Translations under genes and position numbers: made by a program
The notes under the pieces: model-generated
Databases searched by the model: none
What the model was told of the DNA's origin: nothing
The model's input: only the letters and a program-made list of their open reading frames with translations
Assembly: GCA_017539325.1 (NCBI GenBank)
Contig: JAFYHD010000067.1
Coordinates: 821 to 64,820 of the forward strand
From: a bacterium
Lineage (GTDB): Bacteria; Auribacterota; UBA3054
Reading direction: 5' to 3'
DNA length: 64,000 nt
Shown here: positions 148 to 29,225 of the stretch, piece by piece
Numbering within the stretch: the stretch's first letter is position 1
Layout of the letters: each line of letters begins with the position of its first letter

Positions 148-2391
148 ATGAAAGCTCCCCGATACGAATTCACGCCTTTCGGTTACCTCGACAATCCGGC
201 GCACACCGCGCATCTGCACATCTCCGGCGTCGTCAGGTCCGTTCCGCCGTTGGGCTTCGGATTCTGGAAGCGCTCGCTTCCCTGGACCTACGCCAGCGGC
301 GTCTGCCCCAGCTTCAACAACTACCTTTCCTTCCTCAGACTCTCCCTTATCACGGATAAGGTCAGGATCTCCAACATGCAGGAAGCGAAAGCCCAGAACG
401 TCTGTTCGAAGATCCACAGCAAAAACTTGATGAGCTACGACTGGGAAGGCCACGGCCTGAGCTTCAGCGTCACCTATCTCCTGGCCGACGAAGAGACGAT
501 CGCCTGCGACTTCGAGATCAGAAACGAGCTCTTCGAAGAACAGAAAGTGACGCTCAGAGTCTCAAACCTCTACGGCTTTGTCGAGAAGCACTGGTGGGGC
601 AGCTCGGGCGTTGTCAGCCGCTATGTCTCCGAAAAGAAAGCCTGGATAAACAAGATCTGGGAAGGCGGCGCCGTCTTTATCATGGGCGCCGACGACGCGC
701 CCTTGAGGACCGGACTGAAATTCTACAAGGAAGGAGATGACCCCTCGGAGTGGGTCGGCGACGAACTGAACGACCTTAGCTACGGCACCAAAGAGTTCAG
801 CGAGGTAGCAGGCGCGGAGTCCTTCTCCGACTACAGTTTCACCCTCGACGGGAAATCCTCCAGAACAGGACATTTTTACCTTGTCAGGGAAAGGAACGAA
901 GCCTACGCCTGGCGCAAGTTCTGCAAGATAAAACTCGACTACGACATTGTCAAGCACAAAAAGATGGCGGAGGACGAGAAATTCTATTCCCTAACTCCAA
1001 TCTTGGATGGCGACTGGAGCGACAGCTGGAAACAGGGCTGGGTCCAGGACTGGGAAACGCTGAGAATGACCGTCAGGCCGCCCGTGGGCATCTACACGAC
1101 TCCCTGGGACGCCATGCAGATCTTCTCTCCCCGCTGCGTCCTGGGCGAAACGCACCTCGACATGATGTGCTTCGCCTACGCCGATCCTGAGACCGCCAAG
1201 GAAGTCATCTACGGCTGTTTCAAGGACGCGCCCATGCCGAACGTCCCCTGCTCTAGGGAAGACGGATCCATGAACATGATCGGCGCCGGCGGTTCCGAAT
1301 GCGGTACAAGCCCGGTCTGGGGACTTCCCTTCTACGTCATCCGCTCGATCTATTTCCGCGAACACGACCTTTCCTGGCTGAGGAAACTTTATCCTTACCT
1401 CAGGGCCTTCATCAGCTGGTGGCTTGAGAACAGGACGGACGCCGAAGGCTGGTTTCACTGCAATAACTCCTGGGAATCCGGCCAGGACGGCAGCAAGCGT
1501 TTCACCTTCGACGGCTGCAACGAATCCGACGTGGTCGATTTCGTCCGCACCGTGGACGTTGAGGCCGTCATGGCGCACGCCATGGAATCAATGGCGATCT
1601 TCGCCAAGCAGCTTGGTCTCGAGAACGACATTCCCTATTGGCAGGACATGGCGAAAGAACGCATCAAACGCACCCGCGAGATGTTCTTCGAGGGCTGGTT
1701 CAGGGATTTCGACGCCCGCAGCAACAAGCCCATCGTGCTGAAGGACTACTACGACGTCATGATGCTGCTTCCCATTACGGTTGGCGTCGCGCTGCCGCAG
1801 CAGATTGAAGAGATGCGCTCAAGCTTCAAATATTTCATCGAGAATCCGAAGCTGATGCTTGAGTGGCCCTCCTTCCAGTTCCCCTTCACCGAGGCGGCCA
1901 GGCGCGCCAAACAGACGGAAATGGTCAGCGACCTTCTTCTGGCCACCGGCGACCGTGTCTACGCAAGGGAGACCAGCCGGGACGTCCGTCCTCTGGCCAG
2001 CAGGCACAAAACGACCTTCCCCAACTGCTTCCGCTACAAGATGCCAGGCCAGGCTTCGGAGTTCTGGCCGCTGACGCCTGATCCGGTCTGGGAATGCGGC
2101 GCCGAGCACTACGGCTGGGGCGCCACGCTTCCCACCATGGTGATCAGGAATATCTTCGGCATAAGGGAGCTTGAGACGGACTATCCATCTATCGAGATCA
2201 GCCCGACCGTCCCCACGAGCTGGAAGGCAGGATCGTGCTATGGACTCACCAATTTCCACATCGGGCCTTTCGCCTTCGATATTTTCCTTACTCCAATGGA
2301 AAACGGGGTGAAGGTAACTATTGATTTTGCGACTCCCGAGGCGCAGCACATAGAGAAAGTTCTCAAACCCGGTGAAAAGCTAACGTTCTGA
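148..2391 (+). CDS. putative (alpha/alpha)6-barrel glycoside hydrolase (GH63 / glycogen-debranching-like); family assignment tentative
   Basis: 747-aa ORF with coding-like codon bias; internal motifs such as HCNNSWESGQDGSKRF resemble six-hairpin glycosidases; no signal peptide seen. Confidence 0.5.
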   Translation: MKAPRYEFTPFGYLDNPAHTAHLHISGVVRSVPPLGFGFWKRSLPWTYASGVCPSFNNYLSFLRLSLITDKVRISNMQEAKAQNVCSKIHSKNLMSYDWEGHGLSFSVTYLLADEETIACDFEIRNELFEEQKVTLRVSNLYGFVEKHWWGSSGVVSRYVSEKKAWINKIWEGGAVFIMGADDAPLRTGLKFYKEGDDPSEWVGDELNDLSYGTKEFSEVAGAESFSDYSFTLDGKSSRTGHFYLVRERNEAYAWRKFCKIKLDYDIVKHKKMAEDEKFYSLTPILDGDWSDSWKQGWVQDWETLRMTVRPPVGIYTTPWDAMQIFSPRCVLGETHLDMMCFAYADPETAKEVIYGCFKDAPMPNVPCSREDGSMNMIGAGGSECGTSPVWGLPFYVIRSIYFREHDLSWLRKLYPYLRAFISWWLENRTDAEGWFHCNNSWESGQDGSKRFTFDGCNESDVVDFVRTVDVEAVMAHAMESMAIFAKQLGLENDIPYWQDMAKERIKRTREMFFEGWFRDFDARSNKPIVLKDYYDVMMLLPITVGVALPQQIEEMRSSFKYFIENPKLMLEWPSFQFPFTEAARRAKQTEMVSDLLLATGDRVYARETSRDVRPLASRHKTTFPNCFRYKMPGQASEFWPLTPDPVWECGAEHYGWGATLPTMVIRNIFGIRELETDYPSIEISPTVPTSWKAGSCYGLTNFHIGPFAFDIFLTPMENGVKVTIDFATPEAQHIEKVLKPGEKLTF

Positions 2392-2395
2392 AAAA

Positions 2396-4213
2396 ATGAC
2401 AAAAGCCATAAAATATCTCATCTTCCCGCTTCTTCTGGCCGCGATACTTCTGGCCTATTATCCCAGCATAGACTCGTCGTACCATCTGGATGATTTCGAG
2501 ACCATCGTCGAGAACGATCTTGTGGACGCCCATCTTGTGCCGCTCATCAAGAAGTATCCTACCAGATGGCTGGTTTTCTTATCCTACTGGGTCGGTCTCA
2601 GACCGTCTGTGACGAATTTTATCGGCAAGATCTTCACCCCCGAGAGCGCCCAGCTGGTCTCGCTGCATCTCTTCAATTTCTTCCTGCACGCCCTGAACGC
2701 CTGGCTGGTCTACCTAATAACGATCCCGCTTCTGCTTCCCTTGAGACTTAGGGACAAGCTTGACAAGGTCGACGCAAGCACGCATCTCGCGGCGGCGCTC
2801 GCCGCCTTCTTCTACGCTTTGATGCCGCTGCAGACCATGCCGGTCATATACATAGGTCAGCGCTTCACGCTGTTTTCCGCCTTCTTCTATTTCCTGGCGC
2901 TGTACTTCGTAACGAGGGCTTATTTCGCACACTGGCGCAAATCGATAGCCATTCCCTGCGCGATCATTTCCTTTGTCATCGGCCTCTTCTGCAAGGAGAC
3001 CATCGTCACGGCGCCGGTCGCCTGCATCGTTCTGCTGTGGCTCTTCGAAGCCAGCCCGGAATTGAAATACCTGAAATCGCACCAGAAAAAGTATCTCGCG
3101 CTGGAACTCCTAGGCGTCGTGTTCCTATTCCTCGTGCTTCCGGCCTTGGTCTTCTGCCATCTGAACAAGTGGGATCCCGCGCTCATCAGCGGCTCCTTGA
3201 AGAGCGTGGGCGGCATGAGGCACATCGACTACAACGTCGAAGGACTTTCTAGGCTCACGTACTTTTTGACGCAGCCCTTCGTGATCCTCTACTACGTCGC
3301 GCTTTTCTTCATGCCGGGGCTCCTTTGCATCGACCATGACATACCGCTCTGCTCCAGTTTCCTGAGCTGGCAGTGGATCGTTCCCGCCGCCATTTTGATC
3401 GCCTGCTGCGTGGTCTTCTACAAAGTGCGGCACAAATATCCCCTTTCGAGCTGGGGCTTCTTCTTCTTTGTCTTCCCGCTTCTGCCGCAGAGTTCTTTCG
3501 TGCCCACCCTCGACCTTTGCTTCGAGCATAGGATGTACCTGTCGGTGGCCGGTTTGGTCTGGCTTTGCACTGATCTAATCAGGATAATGTGCGGGAATCT
3601 CCCCAAGGCCTTCACCTACGCCGTGAGAGTGCTGCTCCCCGCGGCGCTTCTGGTCTACTCCGTGGCGACTTTCCAGCGGAGCAGGGACTGGAGAAGCGAA
3701 CTGACGCTCTGGGGCGACGCCATGACGAAAGCGGGAAACAAACAGAGAGTGATGATCAACTACGCCTCGGCCTACCTTGGCGAGACCGGCGACCACGAAT
3801 ACGTCATCAACCTTTTGTCGGAAAACATGCCCAAATGGCACATAGTCCATCCCAGGGCCTTCGCTCTCTTGGGCAGCGCCTACCAGCTGGCGGGCGAAAC
3901 AAAATACGCCATCAACAATTATCTTTCCGCCATCGACTGCGACAAGGACAATCCCGTTTTCCGCTACAACATCGCGATCCTCTACCTAAGTTCCGGAAAA
4001 CCCGATTCGGCCCTTAAGCAGTTGAACCGCGCCATACAGCTCAACCCTGATTACGCCGACGTCTACTATCTGCGCGGCGTGGTCAACCGCTATCTGAAGC
4101 GCAACAAATCCGCCGTGAAGGATTACGAAAAATATCTCTCGCTCGCCCCCCACGGAGAAAATTCCGAGGATGCCGCCGAGCAGCTCAAAGCATTAAACGA
4201 ACAATCAAAATAA
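2396..4213 (+). CDS. multi-pass membrane protein with C-terminal TPR repeats (TMTC/PMT-like GT-C O-mannosyltransferase-type architecture)
   Basis: 605 aa. N-terminal ~10 predicted TM helices with a YYPSxDSSYHLDDFETIVEN motif; C-terminal TPR-like repeats (AYQLAGETKYAINNYLSAI..., YYLRGVVNRYLKRNKSAVKDYEKYL). Paralog of 21209..22744. Confidence 0.6.
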   Translation: MTKAIKYLIFPLLLAAILLAYYPSIDSSYHLDDFETIVENDLVDAHLVPLIKKYPTRWLVFLSYWVGLRPSVTNFIGKIFTPESAQLVSLHLFNFFLHALNAWLVYLITIPLLLPLRLRDKLDKVDASTHLAAALAAFFYALMPLQTMPVIYIGQRFTLFSAFFYFLALYFVTRAYFAHWRKSIAIPCAIISFVIGLFCKETIVTAPVACIVLLWLFEASPELKYLKSHQKKYLALELLGVVFLFLVLPALVFCHLNKWDPALISGSLKSVGGMRHIDYNVEGLSRLTYFLTQPFVILYYVALFFMPGLLCIDHDIPLCSSFLSWQWIVPAAILIACCVVFYKVRHKYPLSSWGFFFFVFPLLPQSSFVPTLDLCFEHRMYLSVAGLVWLCTDLIRIMCGNLPKAFTYAVRVLLPAALLVYSVATFQRSRDWRSELTLWGDAMTKAGNKQRVMINYASAYLGETGDHEYVINLLSENMPKWHIVHPRAFALLGSAYQLAGETKYAINNYLSAIDCDKDNPVFRYNIAILYLSSGKPDSALKQLNRAIQLNPDYADVYYLRGVVNRYLKRNKSAVKDYEKYLSLAPHGENSEDAAEQLKALNEQSK

Positions 4214-4223
4214 GGAGTCCAAG

Positions 4224-4886
4224 ATGAAAAAACTTATCCCCTTCTTACTGCTTTTCCCGCTTTTAGTTTTCGGCGAAGAAACCGCTGAGAAGATCGAATT
4301 CAAAGAAGTCTCCGTCGCCCCTGAGTATCTGACTGAGAAAGCCGACACCGACGCCATAGAGGTTGGCGTGGTCGAGATCGTCGAGGCCGGAGAAGAAGCC
4401 GTTCCCGCTGAGGAAGACGAAGAAGAGGAGGAGGAAAATCCTTTCTCCAACACTTACCTGGCCGGCCCCGCTGAGATATTGGCTTCTCTGGGCGTTCCCC
4501 TGGCCTTCACCGGCGTGGGAGCCGGCTGCGGCATAATCCCTGCCACGCAAAGCTACGGCGGCATGGCCATAACCCCCCTGACCGTTGTGGCGGGCACTAC
4601 GGTCGGCGCTGTCTGCGGCGCTCTGTTTACTCCCTGCATCGCCCTGAAAGGCGTGTTTGACACCTTCACGCTGGGTGCTTTCATTGACGAGGAATATGAC
4701 ATCACCGATTCCACGGATATCGTGGAGAACCAAGTCGACTTCATGAACGACATTGCGACTCTCAACAATCCTTTCGATGATGATGAGGTGATAGAGATAG
4801 TTGTGGAAGACGAAGAAACGGAAGAGGAAGAGGAAGCCGAAGCCGAACCCGAGCCCGAAACTGAAACCGAAACCGAAGAAGAATAA
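4224..4886 (+). CDS. secreted highly acidic protein with a Gly/Ala/Cys-rich hydrophobic core; function unknown
   Basis: Signal peptide MKKLIPFLLLFPLLVFG; poly-Glu tracts (EEDEEEEEEN, EDEETEEEEEAEAEPEPETETETEEE) flank the core GVGAGCGIIPATQSYGGMAITPLTVVAGTTVGAVCGALFTPCIAL; SD-like AAGGAG upstream; stop overlaps the dnaX start (TAATG). Confidence 0.5.
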   Translation: MKKLIPFLLLFPLLVFGEETAEKIEFKEVSVAPEYLTEKADTDAIEVGVVEIVEAGEEAVPAEEDEEEEEENPFSNTYLAGPAEILASLGVPLAFTGVGAGCGIIPATQSYGGMAITPLTVVAGTTVGAVCGALFTPCIALKGVFDTFTLGAFIDEEYDITDSTDIVENQVDFMNDIATLNNPFDDDEVIEIVVEDEETEEEEEAEAEPEPETETETEEE

Positions 4887-6163
4887 TGTCAGAAAGCAAC
4901 AACTATCAGGTCTTGGCCAGACGCTGGAGGCCGCAGCGCTTCTCGGAAGTCGTGGGCCAGGATCACATCGTCACCACGCTGCAGAACGCCATCAGCCAGA
5001 AACGCGTCGGCCAGGGGTACCTCTTCATCGGCACTCGCGGCACGGGCAAAACGACCATTGCTCGAATCCTGGCTAAGGCTCTGAACTGCCAATCCAGTGA
5101 CGGGCCGGTGACCGAGCCTTGCTGCGAGTGCGCCAGCTGCCAGGCCATAAAGGAAGGCAGTTCTCTCGACGTCATCGAGATCGACGGCGCCAGCAACCGC
5201 ACGATAGACAACATCAGGCAGATCAGGGACACCGTTTCTATCGCGCCCGTGTCCAGCCGCTACAAGATCTACATCATCGACGAAGTCCACATGCTGACCA
5301 AGGAAGCCTTCAATGCGCTTCTGAAAACGCTTGAGGAACCGCCGGCGCATGTGAAGTTCTTCTTCGCCACGACCGATCCGCAGAAGATCCCGCCCACCAT
5401 CATGTCCCGCGTGCAGAAATTCGAGCTGCACCGCATGGATTGGAACACGCTGAACTCTTACCTTTCCATGATGGCGGAAAAGGAAGGCCTCAAGGCGACG
5501 CCTTCCGCGATAGCTGCGGTCGCCAGGGCCGGCAACGGCAGCATGCGCGACGCGCTCTCCGTCTTTGACCAGGTCTTGGCCTGGGGCGGCGAAAACGTAA
5601 CGGAAAAGGACGTGGCTGCGTTGCTGGGCCTGACCAACCGCGAGATCATAACAGAGCTTTCCGACGCCATCGTCAAAGCCGACTATGAAAGCGCCCTGAG
5701 ATGCGTCGGAAAGGTCATGGAAGGCGGACGTGACGCCGAGCAGTTCATACTGAGTTTGGTGCAGTTCTACCGCAACCTGGCCGTCCTTAAGGTGTCCAGG
5801 GAACCGGGCAGCCTCCTGGAGGAAAGCCCGGAATACATGGCAGAACTTGAGAAAGCCTCCGAAGGCTACACGGTAAGCCAGATCACTTCCGCAATCGATG
5901 AGCTTCTGCAGATCCTGCCGAAACTCTCGGCGACCGAAGCCAAACAGACCATACTGGAACTGGCCGTCCTCAAGCTTATACACGTAAGGTCGCGCATCAG
6001 CGCGGACCTTATCTTCGCGAAATTGGAGGAGCTCGAGAAAGGCTCCGTGACCTTGGAAAAAGAAAAAGAGACGAAAGAACCTAAGAAACAGGAAGCGCCG
6101 GAGGGCGACGTGGCTTTGGCCAGGCAGCTATTCCCCGGCAGCCGTTTGGATAAAAAACAATAA
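4886..6163 (+). CDS. dnaX: DNA polymerase III subunit gamma/tau (short form, 425 aa)
   Basis: N-terminus LARRWRPQRFSEVVGQDHIVTTLQNAISQKRVGQGYLFIGTRGTGKTTIARILAKALNC with Walker A GTRGTGKTT and a Zn-module CCECASC; sensor motifs downstream. Confidence 0.9.
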   Translation: MSESNNYQVLARRWRPQRFSEVVGQDHIVTTLQNAISQKRVGQGYLFIGTRGTGKTTIARILAKALNCQSSDGPVTEPCCECASCQAIKEGSSLDVIEIDGASNRTIDNIRQIRDTVSIAPVSSRYKIYIIDEVHMLTKEAFNALLKTLEEPPAHVKFFFATTDPQKIPPTIMSRVQKFELHRMDWNTLNSYLSMMAEKEGLKATPSAIAAVARAGNGSMRDALSVFDQVLAWGGENVTEKDVAALLGLTNREIITELSDAIVKADYESALRCVGKVMEGGRDAEQFILSLVQFYRNLAVLKVSREPGSLLEESPEYMAELEKASEGYTVSQITSAIDELLQILPKLSATEAKQTILELAVLKLIHVRSRISADLIFAKLEELEKGSVTLEKEKETKEPKKQEAPEGDVALARQLFPGSRLDKKQ

Positions 6164-11640: not shown

Positions 11641-13212
11641 ATGCAAAAATACGTCCAGGAAAAAAAGACCGTGGCTCTGGGAGCCGGATTCTCGATGTTC
11701 GGGTACTTTCTGTCCACTCTGATGGGGCTCCTTACGAACGTCATCCTTTACTGGCGCTTCGACCACTCCCAGGCCTCTTCCGAACTCAACATCTGGATCA
11801 TCGCCTTCTCTTTCTTCGCGATCCTCGAACCCTTCGCGAGGCTCGGCCTTTCCGATGGCGTCCAGCGCTTCATCGGCGTCCACTGGGTCGACAAGGACTG
11901 GGGCCGCATCAAGGGCGTCATCAAGGGTGCCTTCCAGCTTTCCCTTGCCGCGTCTGTCATCATGATAGCCTGCGTCTTCTTTTTGGCGCCGCACATTGCC
12001 AGCCACTATCTGAAGGGCCAGGAAGCCGCACGCGTTCTTTGCAGGGTCCTGCGTTCGCTTTCCCTATACCTCATACCGATTGCGCTGACGACCATCTCGC
12101 TCGCAGTCCTGAGGGCTCTGAACGACATCAGACATTCCGTCTGGATTGAGACGCTCTGCCAGAAATTCGGCTGGCTCATGGTCGTAATATTGGTCGGTTT
12201 CCTACCTCCTAGCGAGAACCGCATCATGGGGTTGGCCTGCGGCATGGTGCTCGTCAATCTCCTCTCCTTTTTGATCTCGGCGAAATGCTTTGTCAAAGCC
12301 GCTCCGAAACTTGAGGGCGTTTCGCCGAACTATGACCGCAAGGCGCTTTTCTTCTTCTCGGTGCCGCTGGTATTGCAGGCCGCCATCCTTGTCTTCATGA
12401 AGAAGTGCGATATTATGATGCTCGGTTATTTCCACAATGCCGAGAACTATGTCTCACAGTACAACGCCGCCGGCATCTCGACGCTCATAATCGCCAACAT
12501 ACTTCTGGCCTACTCCTCCCTTTTCGCGCCCATGATCGCCAAGATCAGCAAGGAAAAGGATTACCGCCGCATGAACGAGCTCTACAAAACGGTCACTCGC
12601 TGGATGCTCTATATAACGCTTCCCGCGGCCGGCATGATGCTTCTCTTCCCTTCTCAGATCCTCTCCGTTTTCCATCTGAACGCCGATCCGATGCTGACGA
12701 CTACCCTGAGGATACTGGTCTGCGCCCAGATAGTCAGCACACTGGCCGGGCATTCCGGGACGATGATGATAATGTCCGGCTATTCCAGGATGATCCTTTA
12801 TATCAATATTCTGGCGGTCTTCGCCAACGTTCTTTTGAACCTGTTTTTGATCCCGCCTTTCGCCATGGTCGGCGCGGCGCTCGCGACTCTGGCGGCCATC
12901 ACTATCAGGAACGCCCTGGCGGTCGTCTGTACGGCGATCCTCGTGAGATCCCAGCCTTTCTCCCTTTCGACCGTGACGATCTCGGTGACAGCCGCCGTCT
13001 GCGGGATTCTGGCTTATTTCGCTTTCAATTACGTCAATGCTCTCCTCCCTGACAACCGGTTCTTTGACCACTGGGCCTTCCAACTGGCCTTGTCAGGCGC
13101 GCTCTATGCTCTTATCTATTTGCCCGCGACCGCTTTAACGATGCACAAAGACGACCGCAGCTTCATAATAGACGAGTGCATTCCGCGTTTCAAACGGGCT
13201 TTACAGAGGTAG
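11641..13212 (+). CDS. oligosaccharide/polysaccharide flippase (MOP superfamily, Wzx/MurJ-like)
   Basis: 523 aa with ~14 predicted TM helices and a Wzx-like polysaccharide-biosynthesis-protein organisation; start abuts the lepA stop. Confidence 0.65.
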   Translation: MQKYVQEKKTVALGAGFSMFGYFLSTLMGLLTNVILYWRFDHSQASSELNIWIIAFSFFAILEPFARLGLSDGVQRFIGVHWVDKDWGRIKGVIKGAFQLSLAASVIMIACVFFLAPHIASHYLKGQEAARVLCRVLRSLSLYLIPIALTTISLAVLRALNDIRHSVWIETLCQKFGWLMVVILVGFLPPSENRIMGLACGMVLVNLLSFLISAKCFVKAAPKLEGVSPNYDRKALFFFSVPLVLQAAILVFMKKCDIMMLGYFHNAENYVSQYNAAGISTLIIANILLAYSSLFAPMIAKISKEKDYRRMNELYKTVTRWMLYITLPAAGMMLLFPSQILSVFHLNADPMLTTTLRILVCAQIVSTLAGHSGTMMIMSGYSRMILYINILAVFANVLLNLFLIPPFAMVGAALATLAAITIRNALAVVCTAILVRSQPFSLSTVTISVTAAVCGILAYFAFNYVNALLPDNRFFDHWAFQLALSGALYALIYLPATALTMHKDDRSFIIDECIPRFKRALQR

Positions 13213-14138: not shown

Positions 14139-15833
14139 TTGCTTTTCGCGGGCATCGTGCCGGCCTTCTGCGGCGTAATCGTCATATTGCTCTTTTTGCT
14201 CGGCATCTTCCTGGCCGGTTCCAAGGTCATACTGCTCTTTGCGGGTCTTGCCCTTCTGATTTTCTTCGTCGCCACTTTGATAAAGGCTTTCCGCGGCGGC
14301 AAGATCATTCCCCCGGCTTTCGTCGGCATTTTGCTCATCGGCTTCTCCGTTTTCGCAATCGGCTCTTACCTGAACGTCGACAAGGCGGAGCTTCTGTCCA
14401 CCAAAAACAATGCCAAGAACGGCAATTTCAGCGCCAATAAGGACGTCGACAACCCTAGCGGCAAGCCGCTGGGCCTCTTCCACAACAGCCTTTCCACTTC
14501 CATAGCCAACCAGATCGACAGCTTCAAGCAGTCGCTTTTTGAGGAGGACCCGGACGTGGCCGGCCCGAAAAAGGACAGCTTCGAAGCCAAGCTCTACGCC
14601 CGCACGAACCACAAGTCCGCCGACTGGATCACCGTCTTCAATTTCTACAGACCCAAAAACGGCAACTGGGATTATCTTGCCCTTGGCTGCGGCCCCAACA
14701 ACTTCAAGCGTTTCTATCGCCAATACCAGCCCAAGTACGTGAAGGAATCCAGATCCGGCGCCGGCAACATCTTCCTGCAGGCTCTGGTCGACCAGGGCAT
14801 CTTCGGTTTCGCCGCTCTGCTTATAATCACGGTCATTACGATCAGCGTAGCCTTCAGCAACGTGGACCACACCATCTCGCCGAGAACTTCCCGAGTCCTG
14901 GCCTGGATGTTCACTTTCCTGGTCTTCGGCTGTCTGTTTGAGAATTCCTTTGCCCAATACCAGATCGCCGCGCTCTACTGGTTCCTCTGCGGCCTTATCA
15001 TGGTGAACGCCGCTACGACCAACCGTGATTATCAGCCGACCTTCAAGGTCCTTTACGTTCTGCTTCTCATCCTGGTGCTTTGCGGCGCGGTCGCCGTCTT
15101 CTGGCCGAAGGTCGTGTCCCATCATAACGAGAAACGCTCTCTGGACGCCGCTGTCACGCGCCTTGAAAAGATAAGGGGAACAGACCTTTCTGAGGAAGAA
15201 TTCTCGCAGCTCTACGCCAAGCATGAGATCGGTTTCAATTACAACAATATCGGCCGCTGGAGCGACAAATCCTCCTTCATGATCGTAAAGCCCGAGAAGG
15301 GCAAACGCATCATCAGGATGGAAACTGCCTGCGCCCATCCGAAACTCTCCCCCGAATTCCCCGTGGAAGTCGAGGTCCTCGTTGAGAGCGAACCGGCCAT
15401 GAAGTTCACTTTCACCAACAGCTGTCTGAAGACCCTGGAATACGACCTTGGCCGCACAAGCCAGATCAGGGCGCTCTTCCAGGAACAGGACTATATCGTT
15501 CTGGAGATCAGGAACAGCCAGACCTTCGTGCCCGCTGAATTCTATCCCAATCTCACGAACCAGACCTACAACGTAGGCGCCTTCATAGGAAAAGTTACTT
15601 TCCATGAAAAGCAGACTCTGCCTTCGGAAGAAGACATGGAGATCGAGGAAAGCGAGCCCGAGGAGAACGAGGTGGAGGAAGAGGTCGTCGCTCCTGTCGA
15701 GGAAGTGAAAGAGGAAGTCAAAAAGGAGATCGAAGTCCCCAAGGAGACCATCTTCGGCGACAAAGTCGGCGAAGAGGAACTGGACGAGACTCTGAAAGAG
15801 ATGAGCAATTTCGAGCTTGAACTTCCGCAGTGA
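14139..15833 (+). CDS. O-antigen ligase / Wzy_C-like membrane protein with an acidic C-terminal tail
   Basis: Motif SRSGAGNIFLQALVDQGIFGFAALLIITVI resembles the Wzy_C/O-antigen-ligase signature; TTG start in the ORF track; the reading frame stays open and hydrophobic upstream to 14029 with no ATG/GTG, so the true start is uncertain. Confidence 0.5.
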   Translation: MLFAGIVPAFCGVIVILLFLLGIFLAGSKVILLFAGLALLIFFVATLIKAFRGGKIIPPAFVGILLIGFSVFAIGSYLNVDKAELLSTKNNAKNGNFSANKDVDNPSGKPLGLFHNSLSTSIANQIDSFKQSLFEEDPDVAGPKKDSFEAKLYARTNHKSADWITVFNFYRPKNGNWDYLALGCGPNNFKRFYRQYQPKYVKESRSGAGNIFLQALVDQGIFGFAALLIITVITISVAFSNVDHTISPRTSRVLAWMFTFLVFGCLFENSFAQYQIAALYWFLCGLIMVNAATTNRDYQPTFKVLYVLLLILVLCGAVAVFWPKVVSHHNEKRSLDAAVTRLEKIRGTDLSEEEFSQLYAKHEIGFNYNNIGRWSDKSSFMIVKPEKGKRIIRMETACAHPKLSPEFPVEVEVLVESEPAMKFTFTNSCLKTLEYDLGRTSQIRALFQEQDYIVLEIRNSQTFVPAEFYPNLTNQTYNVGAFIGKVTFHEKQTLPSEEDMEIEESEPEENEVEEEVVAPVEEVKEEVKKEIEVPKETIFGDKVGEEELDETLKEMSNFELELPQ

Positions 15834-15834
15834 T

Positions 15835-16956
15835 ATGCGCGTTCTCTTCGACGCATTCCCTCTTCTGGCCCCCAAATCGGGAGTCGGCTACTACACCCTG
15901 AATCTTCTGAAAGCGTTTGCCAGGGATTATCCTCTTGACGAGCACATCTATTTCTACGGTCGCCGCTTTTCAAAAGAGATACTGGAGGAAGCCCCGACCT
16001 TCGACGCCGAGCTTAGGAAAACGCTGAAGAAATGCTTCCCTAAGCCTTACCGCATTACCCAGCCGATCAAGGAAATGTTTTTCAAGCTCGGCGCGGGAAA
16101 GCAGAAAGCGGATATTTACCATGAGCTGAATTACGTTCCTCTCCCCTACAAAGGGCCACAGGTCGTGACCGTCTTTGACATGTCTCTTATCAGGTATCCC
16201 GAAACGCATCCCAAGGACCGCCGCTCTTACTTCGAGAGCTATTTTAAAAAGCGTCTCGCGAACGCCGACCATTTCATCACCATCAGCGATTTCTCAAAAA
16301 GAGAGCTGACTGAGCTCTACGACGTTCCGCCGGAAAAAGTGACGACAGTCTACCTTGGCGGGCTCGAGTTCACGAAAGAGAATCCCAATTTCACGGAGAG
16401 GTTGCCGGAGAAATATTTCCTCTACCTCGGCAATCTTGAGCCGAGGAAAAACATCCCTATGCTCCTGAGAGCCTACGCCGAGGCCAAAGCGAAGGAGAAA
16501 GATCTTCCGAAACTGGTCCTGGCCGGCTCCCCTACCTGGCTCTCCGACGAGATCTTCGCGACGATCAGGGAAAAAGGCCTTGCCGATTCCGTCATAATAA
16601 AAGGCTACGTTCCCTTGTCGAATCTTCCGCACTACTACAGGAACGCCCTGGCTTTCCTCTTCCCTTCGAAATACGAAGGCTTCGGACTCCCAGTCTTGGA
16701 GGCGATGGGCGAAGGAACTCCCGTCATCGTATCCGACTCCTCTTCGCTTCCCGAAGTGGTCGGAGAAGCCGGTCTGCTCCTCCCCTGCGACGAAGAGGAG
16801 CTCTGGGCGAAGGCTCTGCTCGAGGTTTTCCAAAACGAGGCGCTCAGGGAGGATCTTTCCAAAAGATCCGCGGAAAGGGCGAAGCTTTTCTCCTGGGGTA
16901 AGTGCGCCGCGAATACGCGCGCCGTCTACGAAAAGACCCTGAGTCTTTACTTTTGA
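15835..16956 (+). CDS. glycosyltransferase family 1 (GT4-type)
   Basis: C-terminal GT1 signature FPSKYEGFGLPVLEAMGEGTPVIVSDSSSLPEVVGEAGLL; ATG at 15835 preferred over the TTG at 15817 given in the ORF track. Confidence 0.85.
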   Translation: MRVLFDAFPLLAPKSGVGYYTLNLLKAFARDYPLDEHIYFYGRRFSKEILEEAPTFDAELRKTLKKCFPKPYRITQPIKEMFFKLGAGKQKADIYHELNYVPLPYKGPQVVTVFDMSLIRYPETHPKDRRSYFESYFKKRLANADHFITISDFSKRELTELYDVPPEKVTTVYLGGLEFTKENPNFTERLPEKYFLYLGNLEPRKNIPMLLRAYAEAKAKEKDLPKLVLAGSPTWLSDEIFATIREKGLADSVIIKGYVPLSNLPHYYRNALAFLFPSKYEGFGLPVLEAMGEGTPVIVSDSSSLPEVVGEAGLLLPCDEEELWAKALLEVFQNEALREDLSKRSAERAKLFSWGKCAANTRAVYEKTLSLYF

Positions 16957-17742: not shown

Positions 17743-18396
17743 ATGGGTTTTCTGCGCAAGATCTATGACTGGGTCATGAGATGCGCGCCTTCCCCGTACG
17801 CTCTCCTGATGCTCGTTTTGCTCTCTTTTTCAGAATCGTCGTTCTTTCCCATACCGCCCGATCCTCTTCTGATAGCCATGTCGCTGGCGAAGCCGAAGCG
17901 TTCCCTCTGGTACGCGCTTTGGTGTTCCGTTTCCTCAGTGCTCGGCGGGGTCCTGGGCTACGTTATCGGCGCTTTCCTTTGGAGCGTGACGAAGGATTTC
18001 TTCTTCACTTACGTTCCTGGCTTTACGCCCGAAGGTTTCGCGACAGTCGAACAACTGTATCTGAAGTACAGCTTCTGGTGCGTCTTCGCCGCCGGTTTCA
18101 CGCCCATTCCCTACAAGATCTTCACCATCGCCTCCGGCGTTTTCGGAATGGCCTTCTGGCCTTTCCTTATAGCCTCGGCTGTCAGCCGTTCGGCCCGCTT
18201 CTTCCTTGTCGCGGGGCTGATCAGGATCTTCGGCGAAAAAATCAAAGCGTTTATTGACAAATATTTCAACATATTAACCATAGCGTTCCTGATCCTTCTC
18301 ATCGGCTGCTTCGCGATCTTCGGATTCCTGAAGAAAAGCGATGAACCGAAGGATGACGGAGCGTCCACGTTAAAAACAAGCGAGGTCTCTGAATGA
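17743..18396 (+). CDS. DedA/YqaA-family membrane protein
   Basis: 217 aa; N-terminal LLMLVLLSFSESSFFPIPPDPLLIAMSL and the overall 4-6 TM pattern typical of YqaA/DedA (SNARE-associated) proteins. Confidence 0.65.
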   Translation: MGFLRKIYDWVMRCAPSPYALLMLVLLSFSESSFFPIPPDPLLIAMSLAKPKRSLWYALWCSVSSVLGGVLGYVIGAFLWSVTKDFFFTYVPGFTPEGFATVEQLYLKYSFWCVFAAGFTPIPYKIFTIASGVFGMAFWPFLIASAVSRSARFFLVAGLIRIFGEKIKAFIDKYFNILTIAFLILLIGCFAIFGFLKKSDEPKDDGASTLKTSEVSE

Positions 18397-20150: not shown

Positions 20151-21227
20151 ATGCGCGTCGTCCACGTCGGAAAATACTACTGGCCCTATGAGAGGGGCAT
20201 CGAAACTTATCTCAAAACTCTCGCGGAAGGGTTGTCCCCTCTTTGCGACCTTACCGTCCTGGTCAGCAACGACAAAAGCGAGACGGTTGAGGAAGAGATT
20301 TGCGGCGTGCACGTCATAAGGCTTGCCAGGAGCTTTCATCTCAACAGCACGGATTTCCTTTTCGGGCTTCCGAAAAAACTGAAAGAGCTGAAACCAGACA
20401 TAATCCACATTCATCTCCCCAACCCCTGGGCTGAAACAAGTTGGAAAATGGCCGGAAGGCCGGGGCGGCTCTTCATCTCCTACCATTCCGACATCATCAG
20501 GCAGAAATATCTTCTGAAACTTTACGCGCCTTTCCATCGCGCCACCCTTGAGAGCGCCGAAAAGATAATCGTCGCCACTCCCAACCATATCAAGTATTCC
20601 CCCTTCCTTTCCAAGCTACCGGAAGAAAAACTGGAGGTCATACACTATGGCCTTCCTCCCATTGATTTCCCAGCTTCTCAAAAGCAGGATCGGCCCTTCA
20701 TTCTCTCGGTCGGGCAGCTTGTTTATTACAAGGGCTTTGACGTCCTTATAAAGGCCGTTGCCGACGTCCCGGGGCTCGACCTTGTGATCGTAGGCTGCGG
20801 TCCGCTGGAAAAAAAGCTGAGGAAGCTTGCGGAAGATTTGGGTATAGGCGAACGTGTGAAATTTCCCGGCCACGTTTCCCAAAGCGAGCTTCTTCAATAT
20901 TACGCGGACTGCGAATTCTTCGTCCTGCCCTCAACTTTCCGAAGCGAGGCCTTCGGGATCGTGCAGTTGGAAGCCTTCCAGGCCGGCAAGGCCGTGATCA
21001 GCGCCGATCTGCCCTCCGGAGTCCCCTACGTCAATCAGAACGGCAAAACAGGGATAGTTGTACCCCCTGGAGACGTCAGGGCCTTAAATGAGGCTGTGAA
21101 GGCCCTCCACGGCGATCCTGAGGAGAGGCTGCGGCTCGGAAACGCGGCCAGGGAAAGGGCCATTTCCGACTTCTCCGCAAAAGAGATGGTTGATCGGACT
21201 TTCGCTCTCTATTTGCCCAAAGCCTGA
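20151..21227 (+). CDS. glycosyltransferase family 1 (GT4-type)
   Basis: C-terminal GT1 fold signature ...PSTFRSEAFGIVQLEAFQAGKAVISADLPSGVPYV... Confidence 0.85.
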   Translation: MRVVHVGKYYWPYERGIETYLKTLAEGLSPLCDLTVLVSNDKSETVEEEICGVHVIRLARSFHLNSTDFLFGLPKKLKELKPDIIHIHLPNPWAETSWKMAGRPGRLFISYHSDIIRQKYLLKLYAPFHRATLESAEKIIVATPNHIKYSPFLSKLPEEKLEVIHYGLPPIDFPASQKQDRPFILSVGQLVYYKGFDVLIKAVADVPGLDLVIVGCGPLEKKLRKLAEDLGIGERVKFPGHVSQSELLQYYADCEFFVLPSTFRSEAFGIVQLEAFQAGKAVISADLPSGVPYVNQNGKTGIVVPPGDVRALNEAVKALHGDPEERLRLGNAARERAISDFSAKEMVDRTFALYLPKA

Positions 21228-22744
21228 TCTATTTCTTTCAGGGCCTCGTCGACGAGGCGTTTCACTTCGGGCAGTTTGCTCTTCAGCTTTTTCGCGGCCA
21301 AAAGTTCTTCCTTCGCTCCTTTAAGGTCGCCCATCCCGGCCAGACAGCAGGCCAGATTGTAGTGGGCTTCAACGGTCTTCGGGCGAAGCTCGATGGCTTT
21401 CTTGAGATACGGCAGAGCCTCAAGGTAGCGCTCCTTCCCCATAAGAGCCTGGCCGACATTGGCGTTCACCCTGAAGTTTTCCGGCGAATAACGCAGATTG
21501 TCCCGCCAGATCAGCTCCGCGTCGCTCCAGTAGAAGTTGCGTCTGAAGGATGAGAAAACGAAGAGCAGAATGATGATTATCAGAACCGCCGCGTTGGAAA
21601 CGTTCTTTTTCGAAAATATCGTAAAGACGACGGCGATCAATATCCCTGGGAGCGCGCAGTAAAGGCGGTGCTCGTAGAGGCCGTTGGGAATGAGCGTAGC
21701 CGCCGGCGCCAATGAAAGCGCGAAAAAACCCAGCCCGAACGCGAGGTACGGCCACCTTTTCCGGTTGATCCAGGCGAAGACCGCCAAAACCAGCCAGAAC
21801 AATATCGCCGAGATCACCCATGGAGAGGCGAAGCCTTCCAAAGGCACGTCGTACTCCAGCCTCAGCCCGAAGGGCCAGAAGCACAGTCTCAGATACACGG
21901 CCCAGACTTTGAACTGCGTGGCGAAATAAGCCCAAATATCGGGCGTATCGGCGTAAAGTCTTCTCAGCGGTGAAAAGTCGAAGCTTAGCCCCTTCCAAAC
22001 TCCCGCAAAGCGCAGAACAATCAGGCAAAGAACGGCGAAGACAGCCGCCGCCAGCGCAAGGTATTTCTTGTTTTTAGCGAGGAACGTCTTCAGGTCGGCG
22101 GAAGCGAAGACGAAATATCCCAGGAGCGCGATAAGCGGAGCCACCGCCATGTTCTCCTTGCAGAAGAGGCCGGCTATGAGGACCAGGACCGCCGGTATAT
22201 AAAAGAGCTTGTTTTTCAATGCCAGCAGAAGGAAGATCAGATGCGCTATCATGAAGGTGAAGCACAGCAGTTCCAGCCGCTGGACGATATAGGTCACCGC
22301 CTGCGTCTGCACGGGATGGACTAAAAAGAGCGCGGCGCACATGAAGGCCGGAAACCGCTTCTCCTCATTTTCCCCAGCCGCTTCCTGCAAAATCAGAAGA
22401 AACCAGTAGAAGAGGAAACCGTTCAGGATATGGATAAAGAGATTGACAAGGTGGTACCAGAAAATATCGAGCGCGCAGAATTGATAATTGGCCCAAAAGG
22501 TCAGGAAAGCCAGGAAACGCCCGGGCGAAAAGCGCCAGAGCTTTAGAAGCGACCCGCTTCTCAAAGCCTCGTTTTCGACGATGCACCTGAAATCGTCGAA
22601 CTGCCAAGTCCCCTTGAAAGAGGAAACGTAAGCCGCGAGGGCCACAAGCGAAAGCAGGAGAAGATCAAAAAGCCAGCGTTTACTTTTCACCGTCAGGCTT
22701 CTCCCCCAGTTCGTAAACGGCAAGGCCGTCAATGTCGCTGACAA
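21209..22744 (-). CDS. multi-pass membrane protein with C-terminal TPR repeats (TMTC/PMT-like); paralog of 2396..4213
   Basis: N-terminal YVSSFKGTWQFDDFRCIVENEAL motif matches the YYPSxDSSYHLDDFETIVEN motif of the paralog; C-terminal TPR (AHYNLACCLAGMGDLKGAKEELLAAKKL). Confidence 0.6.
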   Translation of the reverse strand: MSATLTALPFTNWGRSLTVKSKRWLFDLLLLSLVALAAYVSSFKGTWQFDDFRCIVENEALRSGSLLKLWRFSPGRFLAFLTFWANYQFCALDIFWYHLVNLFIHILNGFLFYWFLLILQEAAGENEEKRFPAFMCAALFLVHPVQTQAVTYIVQRLELLCFTFMIAHLIFLLLALKNKLFYIPAVLVLIAGLFCKENMAVAPLIALLGYFVFASADLKTFLAKNKKYLALAAAVFAVLCLIVLRFAGVWKGLSFDFSPLRRLYADTPDIWAYFATQFKVWAVYLRLCFWPFGLRLEYDVPLEGFASPWVISAILFWLVLAVFAWINRKRWPYLAFGLGFFALSLAPAATLIPNGLYEHRLYCALPGILIAVVFTIFSKKNVSNAAVLIIIILLFVFSSFRRNFYWSDAELIWRDNLRYSPENFRVNANVGQALMGKERYLEALPYLKKAIELRPKTVEAHYNLACCLAGMGDLKGAKEELLAAKKLKSKLPEVKRLVDEALKEIDQALGK

Positions 22745-24125
22745 GATGGAAGGGCACGCCCTGTTCTTCGAGATAGTTTTTCACGACGGGAGAAACGAAG
22801 AAGTTCCTTTTGCCGGGAACGATCTCATCCCTGACCTCTACGTTTTTGGAGATGAGTTTCGGAAGCGCGGCCAGATGATAGCGGTAATACTCCCCGTCGG
22901 TGTAAACGTCACTGGTCACCAACACGCTGCCGTAAGGGATCGTTCCGATGACCTGGGCAAGCTTCGCCGCCTCAAAAGAGCTTCTCCTTGCTGGAACGCG
23001 GTCGAAACTGTGCAAGGCCATGACAAGGATTCCGATAAAAAGCAGAGGGCATAGCAGCATCCGCATTTCCTTCGCACTGGAGATGTAGATGAAAGAACAG
23101 GCCAAAAAGACCGCGAGATAAGCGTTGATCAGCCAGAACCACTGCGCGATATAAAAGTGAAAGCTCGGAACGCAAAAGAGCAAAGTCGCGAGAAAAGCGG
23201 CAACGGCCGTCGTGTTTTCGAGCGTGGCAAACGTTTTTGCTTTTCTGAAAAAAAGGCCCAGAAGAAGAATGGGAATGACGAAAAGGCTTAGCGCGGAGAA
23301 TTGGAAAAAAGAGCGGGAGCAATCAACAAAGGCTGCACCGTAACCGGAGAGCGGCCGCACGAAGTAATTGCTCCAGAACTGCCCGTTCAATACGGCGCAG
23401 AAAAGGCTTTTCCAAAGATCCTCACGTCTTAGATATTCGCAGCTCTCCCCTTTCCCGAAGACAAAAGCGGCGTAGAGATAAGGAAGCATCCCGACGATAA
23501 GCGCCAGAAGAACCCCGGCGGCGAAAGCCTTTCCCTTTCCGGTTTTGAAAAGCAAAATAGATGCGAACGGCAAAATGATCGCGAAAAACCAGAGCGCCAG
23601 AGGATCGTGAAAAGCCAAAAGGCCGCAGGGAATAAACTTCAAATAAAGCGGGATCGACTCATTGACCAAGACGGCGTAAGCGAAAAAGAAAAGGCAAATG
23701 GACAGGGAAACTGGCGTCACTTCCGTCGCGGCCGTAACGATGAAAGGCAGGAAGCTCACCGCCAAGACCGCGAAGAAAGTGAAGAACCGATCCTTGAAAC
23801 GGCGGCTCAGCGCGTCCCAAAGGAAAACGCAGCCAAAAGAGACAAGGATGGCGGAAAGCAGTGAGAGATTCGCCCCCGGTTCGTAGAGGAATTTCAGATG
23901 CGAAAAAACGCGCAGCATCAGCGTGTAGAGAGGGAAAAGCGGCGTGTGAGGCAAACCGCCCTCGATAGCTATGCGCACGAACTTCGCGGAATCCGCGGAG
24001 GCAAGCGCTCCGCCCGGTCCGTATTGCAGACGGAAGACGAACTGGCAGAGGATGAGGAAAAAAAGCGCTGCGCCCGCGCAGAGCGGGCGCAGAACTTGAA
24101 GACGATCTGAAAACTTAGTAGACAA
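22680..24125 (-). CDS. polytopic membrane protein, GT-C-like (ArnT/PMT-type glycosyltransferase-like), hypothetical
   Basis: 481 aa with ~11 TM helices and a C-terminal soluble domain; overlaps the next gene by 65 nt, so the downstream start is uncertain. Confidence 0.4.
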   Translation of the reverse strand: MSTKFSDRLQVLRPLCAGAALFFLILCQFVFRLQYGPGGALASADSAKFVRIAIEGGLPHTPLFPLYTLMLRVFSHLKFLYEPGANLSLLSAILVSFGCVFLWDALSRRFKDRFFTFFAVLAVSFLPFIVTAATEVTPVSLSICLFFFAYAVLVNESIPLYLKFIPCGLLAFHDPLALWFFAIILPFASILLFKTGKGKAFAAGVLLALIVGMLPYLYAAFVFGKGESCEYLRREDLWKSLFCAVLNGQFWSNYFVRPLSGYGAAFVDCSRSFFQFSALSLFVIPILLLGLFFRKAKTFATLENTTAVAAFLATLLFCVPSFHFYIAQWFWLINAYLAVFLACSFIYISSAKEMRMLLCPLLFIGILVMALHSFDRVPARRSSFEAAKLAQVIGTIPYGSVLVTSDVYTDGEYYRYHLAALPKLISKNVEVRDEIVPGKRNFFVSPVVKNYLEEQGVPFHLVSDIDGLAVYELGEKPDGEK

Positions 24126-24510
24126 ACTCGGTCTCTATTTCGATGGAGGGATTAAGGCTGTTCTTCACCGGGCAGGCTTTGGCCGCGCCCTCCAGCCTTT
24201 TCTTCATGGAGTCTTCCAGAGCGATCTTGGGGAAAATGACTTTCACCTTGAAAGTCTTGACGGAGGCCGGAGACTGCTGCATCTCTTTGTCCACTTCCAC
24301 CGAAAGTCCGGTCATGTCGATCTTCTGCTGGGCGGCCACGAAGCCGATCATGCTGGCCGTGCAGGTCGCCAGGGCGGCGGAAAGAACGTCGGTCGGAGAG
24401 AAGACGCCCGGGGTCCCCTTGGCGTCGGTCTCAATGGAAGTCTGGGCGCCCGCCAAAGTGGCGGTGCACTTAAGGTCGCCATTGTAAGCGGCAATTGCGG
24501 AAAGAGCCAT
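24115..24510 (-). CDS. OsmC/Ohr-family peroxiredoxin-like protein
   Basis: 131 aa; OsmC-like pattern with Cys pairs (LKCTATLAG...LATCTASM...AAKACPV). Confidence 0.8.
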   Translation of the reverse strand: MALSAIAAYNGDLKCTATLAGAQTSIETDAKGTPGVFSPTDVLSAALATCTASMIGFVAAQQKIDMTGLSVEVDKEMQQSPASVKTFKVKVIFPKIALEDSMKKRLEGAAKACPVKNSLNPSIEIETEFVY

Positions 24511-29182: not shown

Positions 29183-29225
29183 ATTTCGTATCCTTTTATT
29201 GATTGTTCTCTATCTGTTTATTCTA

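Follow-up and report, generated by a model that had tools for sequence, protein, structure and literature searches.

Two genes in a bacterial DNA stretch of 64,000 nucleotides (hereafter, the window) encode polytopic membrane proteins, ORF A and ORF B, that end in tetratricopeptide repeats (TPRs). The window comes from a rumen bacterium. Animal TMTC1-4 (CAZy GT105), which O-mannosylate cadherins and protocadherins in the endoplasmic reticulum (ER), combine the same kinds of domain, and an original prediction made from the sequence took both proteins for enzymes of that type that could glycosylate exoproteins encoded nearby. We therefore asked whether ORFs A and B are indeed TMTC-type enzymes and, if so, which acceptors they might modify.

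Two paralogous TMTC-like proteins

Both genes proved to be real open reading frames whose products have in common a membrane domain followed by C-terminal TPRs. ORF A (2396..4213, plus strand) encodes 605 aa, with a membrane domain of 11 transmembrane (TM) helices spanning residues 1 to about 435 and TPRs from about 435 to 604 (Pfam matches at ~448-600), which form ~5 hairpins in the AlphaFold2 (AF2) model. ORF B (21209..22690, minus strand) likewise has an 11-helix membrane domain, followed by about two Pfam-detected TPRs at residues ~408-493. Its coordinates had been given as 21209..22744, but the TTG at 22744 probably lies too far upstream. The most likely start is the GTG at 22690, because the same 11-nt overlap with the preceding gene and the same 'VK.K' beginning recur in three orthologous loci, and ORF B is therefore 493 aa long. 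The ORF B orthologues share this GTG start and are 80-83% identical. The proposed paralogy held: BLASTP aligned A with B at 27% identity over ~450 aa of the membrane domain (E=4e-31), and the N-terminal loop motifs quoted for the two proteins are present (...YYPSIDSSYHLDDFETIVEN... in A, ...YVSSFKGTWQFDDFRCIVENEAL... in B). When the 203 ORFs of 100 aa or more in the window were all scanned with profiles, exactly these two family copies were found.

The membrane domain of both proteins adopts a GT-C fold, as the original prediction had expected, a fold common to ArnT, AftB and AftD. Full-length queries matched only TPR proteins, so the TPRs were trimmed before searching. With the membrane domain, single-sequence and profile searches of PDB sequences gave nothing, and two k-mer-prefiltered homology searches returned bacterial 'TPR' proteins only and no eukaryotic TMTCs; the link to TMTCs was instead established with the animal sequences in the supplement of PMC7801869. 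A bacterial A/B profile scored 141-177 bits against 12 animal TMTCs and 5.4 bits against ArnT, and found no match in Pmt1, PglB or STT3B. The reverse search with an animal TMTC profile agreed, scoring 60.9 bits for B and 34.6 bits for A, and phmmer comparisons of B with TMTCs reached values down to E=2e-8. B is thus nearer to the animal proteins, and A stands furthest from them in the family. On these alignments, A and B are relatives of the animal TMTC protein O-mannosyltransferases, with significant homology along the full membrane domain, and the earlier choice of a TMTC over a PMT assignment was sound.

Curated models would not have led to this conclusion, since neither Pfam nor NCBIfam recognises the catalytic domain of A or B. 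Neither of the two Pfam models originally put forward for checking was significant. TMTC_DUF1736 (PF08409), which is built on metazoan sequences, falls at the expected position in A (aa 285-336) with E=3.8 and 8 bits against a 27-bit cut-off, and reaches E<=0.1 in 2 of 19 homologues. PMT_2 gave no match in A or B at E<=10 and is reached by only three of the 19 family members; the MIR domain is absent, and comparison with Pmt1, Pmt2 and Pmt4 gave no sequence match. An O-antigen polymerase or ligase (Wzy/WaaL/PglL), which had been named as the identity that would speak against a TMTC reading, was excluded: the fold differs and no Wzy_C domain occurs in A, B or the neighbouring ORF C. Such a domain is found in the product of a separate gene (14139..15833), which could be an alternative O-oligosaccharyltransferase.

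The profile matched ~125,000 cluster representatives in very varied gene contexts. Because no curated model covers the catalytic domain, these relatives are labelled almost everywhere simply as 'tetratricopeptide repeat protein'. The family was already noted in 2021, and PMC7801869 merely mentions prokaryotic TMTC homologues, in keeping with the earlier remark that the architecture is poorly characterised in bacteria; no bacterial member appears to have been characterised.

Conservation of the catalytic motifs

We compared A and B with the seven reference motifs of Eisenhaber et al. 2021 (M1, DD; M2, SHKSYRP; M3, RxD; M4, KE(T/Q)xxT; M5, DW; M6, PxxP; M7, ERxxY). The acidic motif sought in the first loop is present in both proteins as D32-D33 (numbered in B from the GTG), aligned with the TMTC catalytic DD of M1; D32 is invariant and D33 is found in at least 90% of homologues. 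From M2 both copies keep only the Arg (R57 in A). At M3, B has the Arg and a Glu, and A has an Arg followed by Thr (QRFT), without an acidic residue. M4 is exact in A (KETIVT) and limited to K and E in B; M5 reads D-H in A and E-Y in B, that is, an acidic residue followed by an aromatic residue or His; M6 is exact in A (PLLP) and SLAP in B. M7 takes the form E-H-R-x-Y, with E and Y in register and the Arg shifted by one position. Five to six of the seven motifs are thus recognisable and none is absent outright. The key residues of A are D32-D33, R57, R156, K200-E201-T202..T205, D313, P360..P363 and E377/R379/Y381. What A and B conserve, then, is the first-loop DD, the lysine and glutamate of KExxT, the acidic residue of EL4 and the Glu/Arg/Tyr cluster of EL5. 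Because A lacks the M3 acid, M2 is reduced to Arg and the M7 Arg is shifted, the donor chemistry of A/B may differ from that of TMTCs. Periplasmic exposure of all these motifs and of the TPR domain is predicted from the positive-inside rule, as read from the AF2 helices, and from the topology models for TMTCs and for the Pseudomonas aeruginosa enzyme TfpW.

A TMEM260-like gene is coupled to ORF B

ORF C (22680..24125, minus strand) encodes about 481 aa and had been described as GT-C-like, a label borne out by a predicted model that, though poor (pLDDT 62), shows the GT-C fold. A small C-terminal alpha/beta domain of ~100 residues ends at residue 481, and no TPR was detected. When a C-family profile was run against 177,635 PDB sequences, the sole meaningful match, albeit weak (E=0.0072), was human TMEM260 (9rql); it covers C residues 18-416 and the entire TM domain. 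Against the Pfam model PF11028, C scored 20.6 bits (E=4e-4), below the 24.2-bit cut-off. In human TMEM260, D441 is the catalytic base, and D52 and H67 together with R264, Y267 and R355 are catalytic or donor-binding residues. C keeps three of these essential residues: D52, H67 and D441 correspond to its D44, H59 and D405, which do not vary within the C family, whereas R264, Y267 and R355 fall on N246, F249 and W328 and are not conserved. We regard C as a divergent TMEM260-like (DUF2723/GT117-like) protein. The idea that C is related to A and B was also considered and rejected (hhalign probability of 0.8% only).

The GTG start of B overlaps the stop codon of C by 11 nt; the two genes are translationally coupled, and B and C are always adjacent in the orthologous loci compared. 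The original prediction missed both this coupling and the TMEM260-like character of C, which are more telling.

The genes around ORFs A and B

Directly upstream of C lies a gene for an OsmC-like protein (24115..24510, minus strand), which is kept in the orthologous loci. It is preceded on the same strand by an operon-like array of giant secreted proteins and an esterase (24527..43108; esterase at 32786..33937), whose members are candidate acceptors by gene order. The array proteins contain metzincin/reprolysin-like, PKD, LTD, CotH and CarboxypepD_reg domains and carry PEP-CTERM-like tails. TIGR02595 is the best match for all four exoproteins, one scoring above the cut-off and the other three slightly under it, in line with the name PEP-CTERM cluster used earlier. 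At 14-16% Ser+Thr, however, these proteins are not notably rich in the two residues, contrary to what had been claimed. Neither an exosortase nor a polyprenyl-phosphate-sugar synthase (a GT2 donor-synthesis gene) was found within the window, and promoter and terminator scans gave counts at chance level.

On the other side of B, the gene at 20151..21227 (plus strand), previously listed as GT1, does encode a glycosyltransferase, but one of CAZy family GT4, a GT-B enzyme (Pfam Glycos_transf_1). It meets B tail to tail with a 19-nt overlap of 3' ends, and the two convergent genes cannot therefore be co-transcribed. As it is also absent from this position in the orthologous loci, the GT4 gene probably stands outside the B unit.

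The exoprotein-OsmC-C-B genes share one strand with overlaps or gaps of at most 43 nt. A PKD exoprotein lies directly upstream of OsmC-C-B also in the orthologous loci L009 and L011, and the block is retained where C is only ~46% identical, while the downstream genes change; at these loci B is still 80-83% conserved. The C-B-exoprotein block has been seen in one lineage only, and a single-protein scan for related loci recovered close rumen relatives only. No gene context shared across phyla or across the wider A/B family was found, and because the context is not conserved in that family, the exoprotein link is limited to the present lineage.

The surroundings of A are different from those described in the original prediction, which had both paralogues flanking glycosyltransferase genes. 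A has no glyco-gene context of that kind: on one side is a GH63-like (MGH1-like) glycoside hydrolase (148..2391, plus strand), whose 3' end lies 4 nt before ORF A, on the other an acidic secreted protein, and then come dnaX and aspS. The pairing of the hydrolase with A is kept at 65% identity and lost at 35%.

Which molecules might be glycosylated?

With moderate confidence, we propose that A and B are TMTC-type inner-membrane GT-C glycosyltransferases that use a polyprenyl-phosphate-sugar donor and Ser/Thr acceptors in exported proteins, B acting together with C on the exoproteins. From what is known of the family, the enzyme would take a single sugar from the polyprenyl-phosphate-sugar at the outer face of the inner membrane, its TPR domain would hold an unfolded or extended stretch of the exported protein, and the sugar would then pass to a Ser/Thr hydroxyl. 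Mannose as the sugar would be an analogy only. B would work as one unit with C, in which the Rossmann-like-domain aspartate is present and a TPR of its own is lacking. As clients of the two, the likeliest would be the PEP-CTERM exoproteins that contain PKD/Ig-like domains and whose genes lie immediately upstream in the same orientation, whereas A would be a diverged copy in a housekeeping context, serving separate clients of its own. O-glycosylation of the nearby exoproteins is thus suggested by homology and gene order. Counting against the proposal are the missing polyprenyl-phosphate-sugar synthase gene in the window, the varied gene context of the wider family, the departures of A and B from motifs M2, M3 (in A) and M7, the weak PDB match, poor model and three unconserved residues of C, and the Wzy_C protein as another possible O-glycosylation enzyme.

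An unlikely alternative is that what A and B glycosylate is no protein but another envelope component (lipid A/LPS core, O-antigen, exopolysaccharide or peptidoglycan), the TPRs merely docking them to envelope machinery, after the model of ArnT, GtrC-type enzymes or the Emb/Aft arabinosyltransferases. The fold shared with ArnT, AftB and AftD would fit, as would the plentiful LPS and polysaccharide genes of the window (a Wzx-like flippase, Wzy_C, two GT4s and kdsD/A/B) and the ABC2/Wzt O-antigen exporter that follows the B orthologue in L009; TfpW itself may also polymerise D-Araf. Yet these polysaccharide genes are neither co-oriented nor conserved with A or B, A and B show sequence similarity to TMTCs specifically, whereas none was detected to ArnT or PglB, and the acceptor of the characterised TPR-bearing GT-C and GT-B enzymes (TMTC, TMEM260, OGT, TfpW) is a protein.

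Less probable again is that A and B glycosylate other proteins, such as pilins, OmpA-like proteins or lipoproteins, the gene order at B reflecting lineage-specific synteny only. The very varied contexts of the ~125,000 representatives, the housekeeping neighbours of A, the pilin target of the characterised analogue TfpW and the restriction of the C-B-exoprotein block to one lineage all point that way; the persistence of exoprotein-OsmC-C-B down to ~46% identity in C while downstream genes change, and the tight packing on one strand, speak for the exoproteins as clients. Finally, it is very improbable that A, B or both have lost catalysis and act as TPR scaffolds or chaperones of glycosyltransferase descent, since, despite the divergence of A (34.6 bits), its loss of the M3 acid and the non-enzymatic roles in ER homeostasis proposed for TMTCs, residues D32, D33, R57, K200, R379 and Y381 of A are invariant or nearly so in homologues down to 23% identity and B stays 80-83% conserved where C falls to ~46%.

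Comparison with known enzymes and implications

Like TMTC1-4, A and B have the N-terminus inside, 11 TM helices and a GT-C domain followed by TPRs (luminal in TMTCs, and presumably periplasmic here), with significant full-length homology in both directions of search and with M1, M4, M5, M6 (PxxP in A) and the E..Y of M7 in register. TMTCs carry 8-10 TPRs, against ~5 in A and ~2 in B. A and B also differ in lacking the ~17-residue 'NDFWG' insert, in the reduced M2 and shifted M7 Arg described above, and in their bacterial origin, which requires a bacterial polyprenyl-phosphate sugar as donor.

A bacterial analogue is TfpW, a 646-aa GT-C pilin O-glycosyltransferase (D-Araf) required for Ser/Thr glycosylation of a protein whose gene adjoins its own. 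It spans the inner membrane with 11 TM helices, its N-terminus lying in the cytoplasm, and exposes to the periplasm both an essential DDx motif and a C-terminal TPR domain. A and B resemble it in size and predicted layout, and A has a YX6P element (Y300..P307), but neither adjoins a pilin gene. With PMT/POMT (GT39), actinobacterial Pmt and ArnT (GT83) they share the GT-C fold, an acidic first-loop motif and, as we infer for A/B, a polyprenyl-phosphate-monosaccharide donor. In none of these enzymes, however, was sequence similarity to the A/B profile detectable; in place of C-terminal TPRs, PMTs carry a MIR domain within a loop, and the target of ArnT is lipid A. C, for its part, shares with human TMEM260 (CAZy GT117), the O-mannosyltransferase for IPT domains, the GT-C fold, the D52/H67/D441 equivalents and a weak match to the Pfam TMEM260-like model. 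It departs from that 707-aa protein, which has a luminal Rossmann-like domain and TPRs, in its 481-aa length, its short alpha/beta end without TPR and its unconserved R264, Y267 and R355 equivalents as aligned, and all its scores lie below curated thresholds.

More speculatively, and we consider it doubtful, OsmC-C-B could correspond in bacteria to metazoan domain-specific O-mannosylation, perhaps as its forerunner, the TMTC- and TMEM260-type enzymes jointly placing single sugars on the Ig-like (PKD) domains of giant PEP-CTERM proteins as they cross the periplasm. B and C would then perhaps form a heteromer in which the TPRs of B recruit the acceptor for the TPR-less C, paralleling the action in animals of TMTCs on cadherin EC domains and of TMEM260 on IPT domains.

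Of the three enzyme families that initiate protein O-mannosylation in animals, two are TMTC and TMEM260, and their defects lead to brain, hearing and heart disorders. The present locus is a compact case in which an array of genes for secreted proteins with Ig-like domains ends in a TMTC-like gene translationally coupled to a TMEM260-like one. Should the module not glycosylate the exoproteins, the correction of the annotation would remain useful; if it does, it would offer a bacterial model in which the donor and acceptor rules of TMTC and TMEM260 enzymes could be worked out experimentally, evidence on their evolutionary origin and a role for a very large, mis-annotated family.

Two TMTC-like membrane proteins

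The two genes claimed in the original prediction were both present, each carrying the motif quoted for it. The source is a rumen bacterium that has not been cultured. Gene A (2396..4213, + strand) encodes 605 aa, and its protein shares 84-94% identity with gene products from 'bacterium UBP3_UBA3054' and from several rumen MAGs of yak, goat and buffalo. The start of gene B had been placed at 22744, where ORF calling gives a TTG and a 65-nt overlap with the upstream gene. A GTG at 22690 leaves an 11-nt overlap that takes in the stop codon (22682..22680) of the upstream gene, C. Because B orthologues in three other loci begin at the corresponding GTG ('VKNKG...') and overlap the gene before them by the same 11 nt, we took B as 21209..22690 (- strand, 493 aa from GTG). 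Counted from this start, the DD motif of B falls at residues 32-33, as in A. BLASTP aligned A and B at 27% identity over ~450 residues (E = 4e-31) and, therefore, their paralogy is real. Among the 203 window ORFs of 100 aa or more, a family profile found exactly these two copies, in which Pfam and NCBIfam detect only TPR repeats (last ~150 residues of A, ~85 of B).

The membrane domain alone matched zero PDB chains, either as a single sequence or as A2, a profile of 19 bacterial sequences. Pfam PMT_2 was reached by only 3 of 19 homologues and TMTC_DUF1736, weakly, by 2. As the TMTC set we used catalytic domains from the N-terminal part of TMTC1-4 (human, fly and zebrafish), given in Additional file 1 of Eisenhaber et al. 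2021 (PMC7801869), the same file providing ArnT, Pmt1, PglB and STT3B fragments as controls. Single-sequence searches against individual TMTCs reached E = 2e-8 for B and 6e-4 for A. In the reverse search, a profile from 12 animal TMTCs only was run against all 203 window ORFs. The top scores were 60.9 bits for B, covering profile positions 6-422 of 432, and 34.6 bits for A (positions 14-431), with the next-best ORF at 4.6 bits; scaled to a database of 1.84 billion, B and A would still have E = 1e-11 and 1e-3. This result upholds the earlier proposal of a TMTC type rather than PMT. Judged by sequence, A and B are members of the TMTC branch of GT-C, not of the PMT/GT39 or ArnT/GT83 branches, B being the less diverged copy relative to TMTCs.

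Conserved motifs and predicted topology

Seven TMTC motifs (M1-M7) have been defined around a modelled Dol-P-Man and metal site (PMC7801869), and we compared them with A and B in a profile-guided alignment. The DD of M1 is D32-D33 in both proteins. From SHKSYRP (M2) only the Arg is present in each (R57 in A), invariant across the A/B family, and A lacks the TMTC-specific insert preceding it. M3 (RxD) reads R-F-T in A, with the acidic residue lost, and R-L-E in B. M4 (KE(T/Q)xxT) is exact in A (KETIVT) and retains K and E only in B (KENMAV), M5 (DW) is D313-H in A and E-Y in B, and M6 (PxxP) is exact in A (PLLP) and SLAP in B. M7 (ERxxY) appears as E377-H-R379-M-Y381 in A and in the same pattern, EHRLY, in B: Glu and Tyr are in register with the TMTCs and the Arg is shifted one residue towards the C-terminus; AERRLY occurs in some members of the family. 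Since D32, R57, K200, R379 and Y381, together with H98, P144, Y152, R156, P207, P307 and R428, are invariant in homologues down to 23% identity, conservation favours an active enzyme over a scaffold.

Positively charged loops of the membrane domain lie at aa 114-126, 177-183, 218-230 and 344-348. From this Lys/Arg-rich loop distribution and the AF2 helices, we infer 11 TM helices and a cytoplasmic N-terminus, which would put all the conserved polar motifs, along with the TPR domain, on the periplasmic side. The published TMTC topology model shows the same arrangement, as does TfpW, a Pseudomonas aeruginosa pilin O-glycosyltransferase whose topology has been probed experimentally.

The neighbour of B resembles TMEM260

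Gene C (22680..24125, - strand) had been proposed to encode a GT-C protein, and this identity held. Its relatives are only lineage-restricted 'hypothetical proteins' (45-98% identity), and its Pfam TMEM260-like match is below threshold (20.6 bits versus a 24.2-bit cut-off). A C-family profile searched against 177,635 PDB sequences gave one meaningful match, human TMEM260 (9rql, E = 0.007), aligning C 18-416 with TMEM260 29-452. The invariant D44, H59 and D405 of C align with TMEM260 D52, H67 and D441, which are essential according to a 2026 cryo-EM preprint, D441 being the catalytic base. In contrast, TMEM260 R264, Y267 and R355 are not conserved in C, which also lacks the TPR domain of TMEM260. 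C is thus a GT-C protein and probably a divergent TMEM260/DUF2723-type enzyme. Profile-profile comparison ruled out C as a relative of the A/B family. A strong terminator-like hairpin (24092..24068, - strand; 10-bp stem, 9 G-C pairs, then a T run) sits within the 5′ end of C (codons ~12-19), just downstream of the OsmC-like gene (24115..24510, - strand). It could be an attenuator or a chance occurrence, the overall count of such sites equalling the shuffled expectation.

Gene context of B and A

A ~22-kb same-strand array, running from 43108 to 21209, ends with B; overlaps and gaps between its genes never exceed 43 nt. Its products include secreted proteins (~1,200-1,550 aa) that carry metzincin/reprolysin-like, PKD, LTD, CotH and CarboxypepD_reg domains, whose C-terminal tails best match PEP-CTERM (TIGR02595, 16-bit cut-off; one at 19.2 bits, three at 14.6-15.6). 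The array also carries an esterase gene (32786..33937) and finishes with OsmC, C and B. The OsmC-C-B order is kept in all three orthologous loci (L009, L010 and L011), with a PKD exoprotein gene in front of it in L009 and L011, and the genes downstream differ. Identity to the window copies in these loci is 80-83% for B but only ~46% for C, a large difference in evolutionary rate between translationally coupled genes (21209..24125). A GT4 gene earlier linked to B runs convergently to it and is missing from these loci. Neither a polyprenyl-phosphate-sugar synthase nor an exosortase was found in the window. Within the array, ORFs 35242..38556 and 33910..35205 (- strand) share a frame and are parted by a single TGA (35244..35242); the upstream part has a signal peptide without a PEP-CTERM tail, and the opposite is true of the downstream part. 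Together (33910..38556) they would form one exoprotein of ~1,536 aa, and the TGA may reflect a nonsense mutation, a sequencing error or recoding.

A starts 4 nt after a GH63-like (MGH1-like/trehalase-like) glycoside hydrolase gene (148..2391, + strand; 747 aa, no obvious signal peptide) and is followed by genes for an acidic secreted protein, dnaX and aspS. Gene order is kept in relatives at 65% identity, and so is the hydrolase-A pairing (L006, L007), which is lost at 35% (L008); an A homologue at 35% identity adjoins mreC and PBP2 instead, and three more distant family members have unrelated contexts. The secreted protein (4224..4886, + strand; 220 aa) has very acidic, Glu-rich ends, a Gly/Ala/Thr-rich hydrophobic core and no family match; it is conserved beside A in L006 and L007 (231 aa) and is a possible client or partner of A. 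One of these three, a TMTC-like member in a Phycisphaerae MAG (GCA_035275405.1, locus L014), divergently adjoins a 240-aa GT2 and a DUF2304 small membrane protein (L014 5122..5844 and 4784..5125), with another GT2 after it. A GT2 with a DUF2304 protein is a typical module for supplying polyprenyl-phosphate-sugar, and the arrangement looks like a three-component system of this kind.

Other envelope and glycan genes

A 564-aa Wzy_C-domain membrane protein (14139..15833, + strand) is encoded between a Wzx/MurJ-like flippase gene (11641..13212) and a GT4 gene (15817..16956), NCBIfam giving it a weak IctB-like match only. Possible identities are an O-antigen ligase and a PglL-type protein O-oligosaccharyltransferase, the latter representing a second, independent protein-glycosylation route in the window. 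Between two groups of glyco-genes lies a DedA/VTT-domain membrane protein gene (17743..18396, + strand); some members of this superfamily are implicated in undecaprenyl-phosphate recycling. A run of kdsD (SIS+CBS), kdsA and kdsB (46089..48660, - strand), with a 906-aa BamD/YfiO-like TPR lipoprotein nearby (49543..52263), indicates that this candidate-phylum organism has a diderm envelope with LPS.

Proposed function

By homology, A and B would use a polyprenyl-phosphate-linked monosaccharide as donor on the periplasmic side and pass the sugar to an acceptor that the TPR domain holds, mannose being suggested by analogy only. Protein O-glycosylation is favoured, at somewhat better than an even chance, because in the characterised enzymes joining a glycosyltransferase domain to TPRs (TMTC, TMEM260, OGT and bacterial TfpW) the acceptor is always protein, and the TMEM260 TPR domain is sufficient for peptide binding. 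Decoration of a non-protein envelope glycan, the main rival, appears unlikely. As clients of B and C, the upstream exoproteins are a tentative best guess.

Full-length prokaryotic homologues, transferase domain and TPRs included, were already noted in 2021 (PMC7801869), and distant bacterial homologues of TMEM260 in 2023. An exhaustive profile search returned 125,094 cluster representatives at E ≤ 1e-3 (54,971 at E ≤ 1e-30), and family homologues are almost always annotated 'tetratricopeptide repeat protein'. A and B are thus further members of a known, uncharacterised kind of protein. As far as the literature searched shows, what is new is a conserved, translationally coupled TMTC-like and TMEM260-like pair behind an array of Ig-like-domain exoproteins, a lineage-restricted pairing whose meaning we infer.
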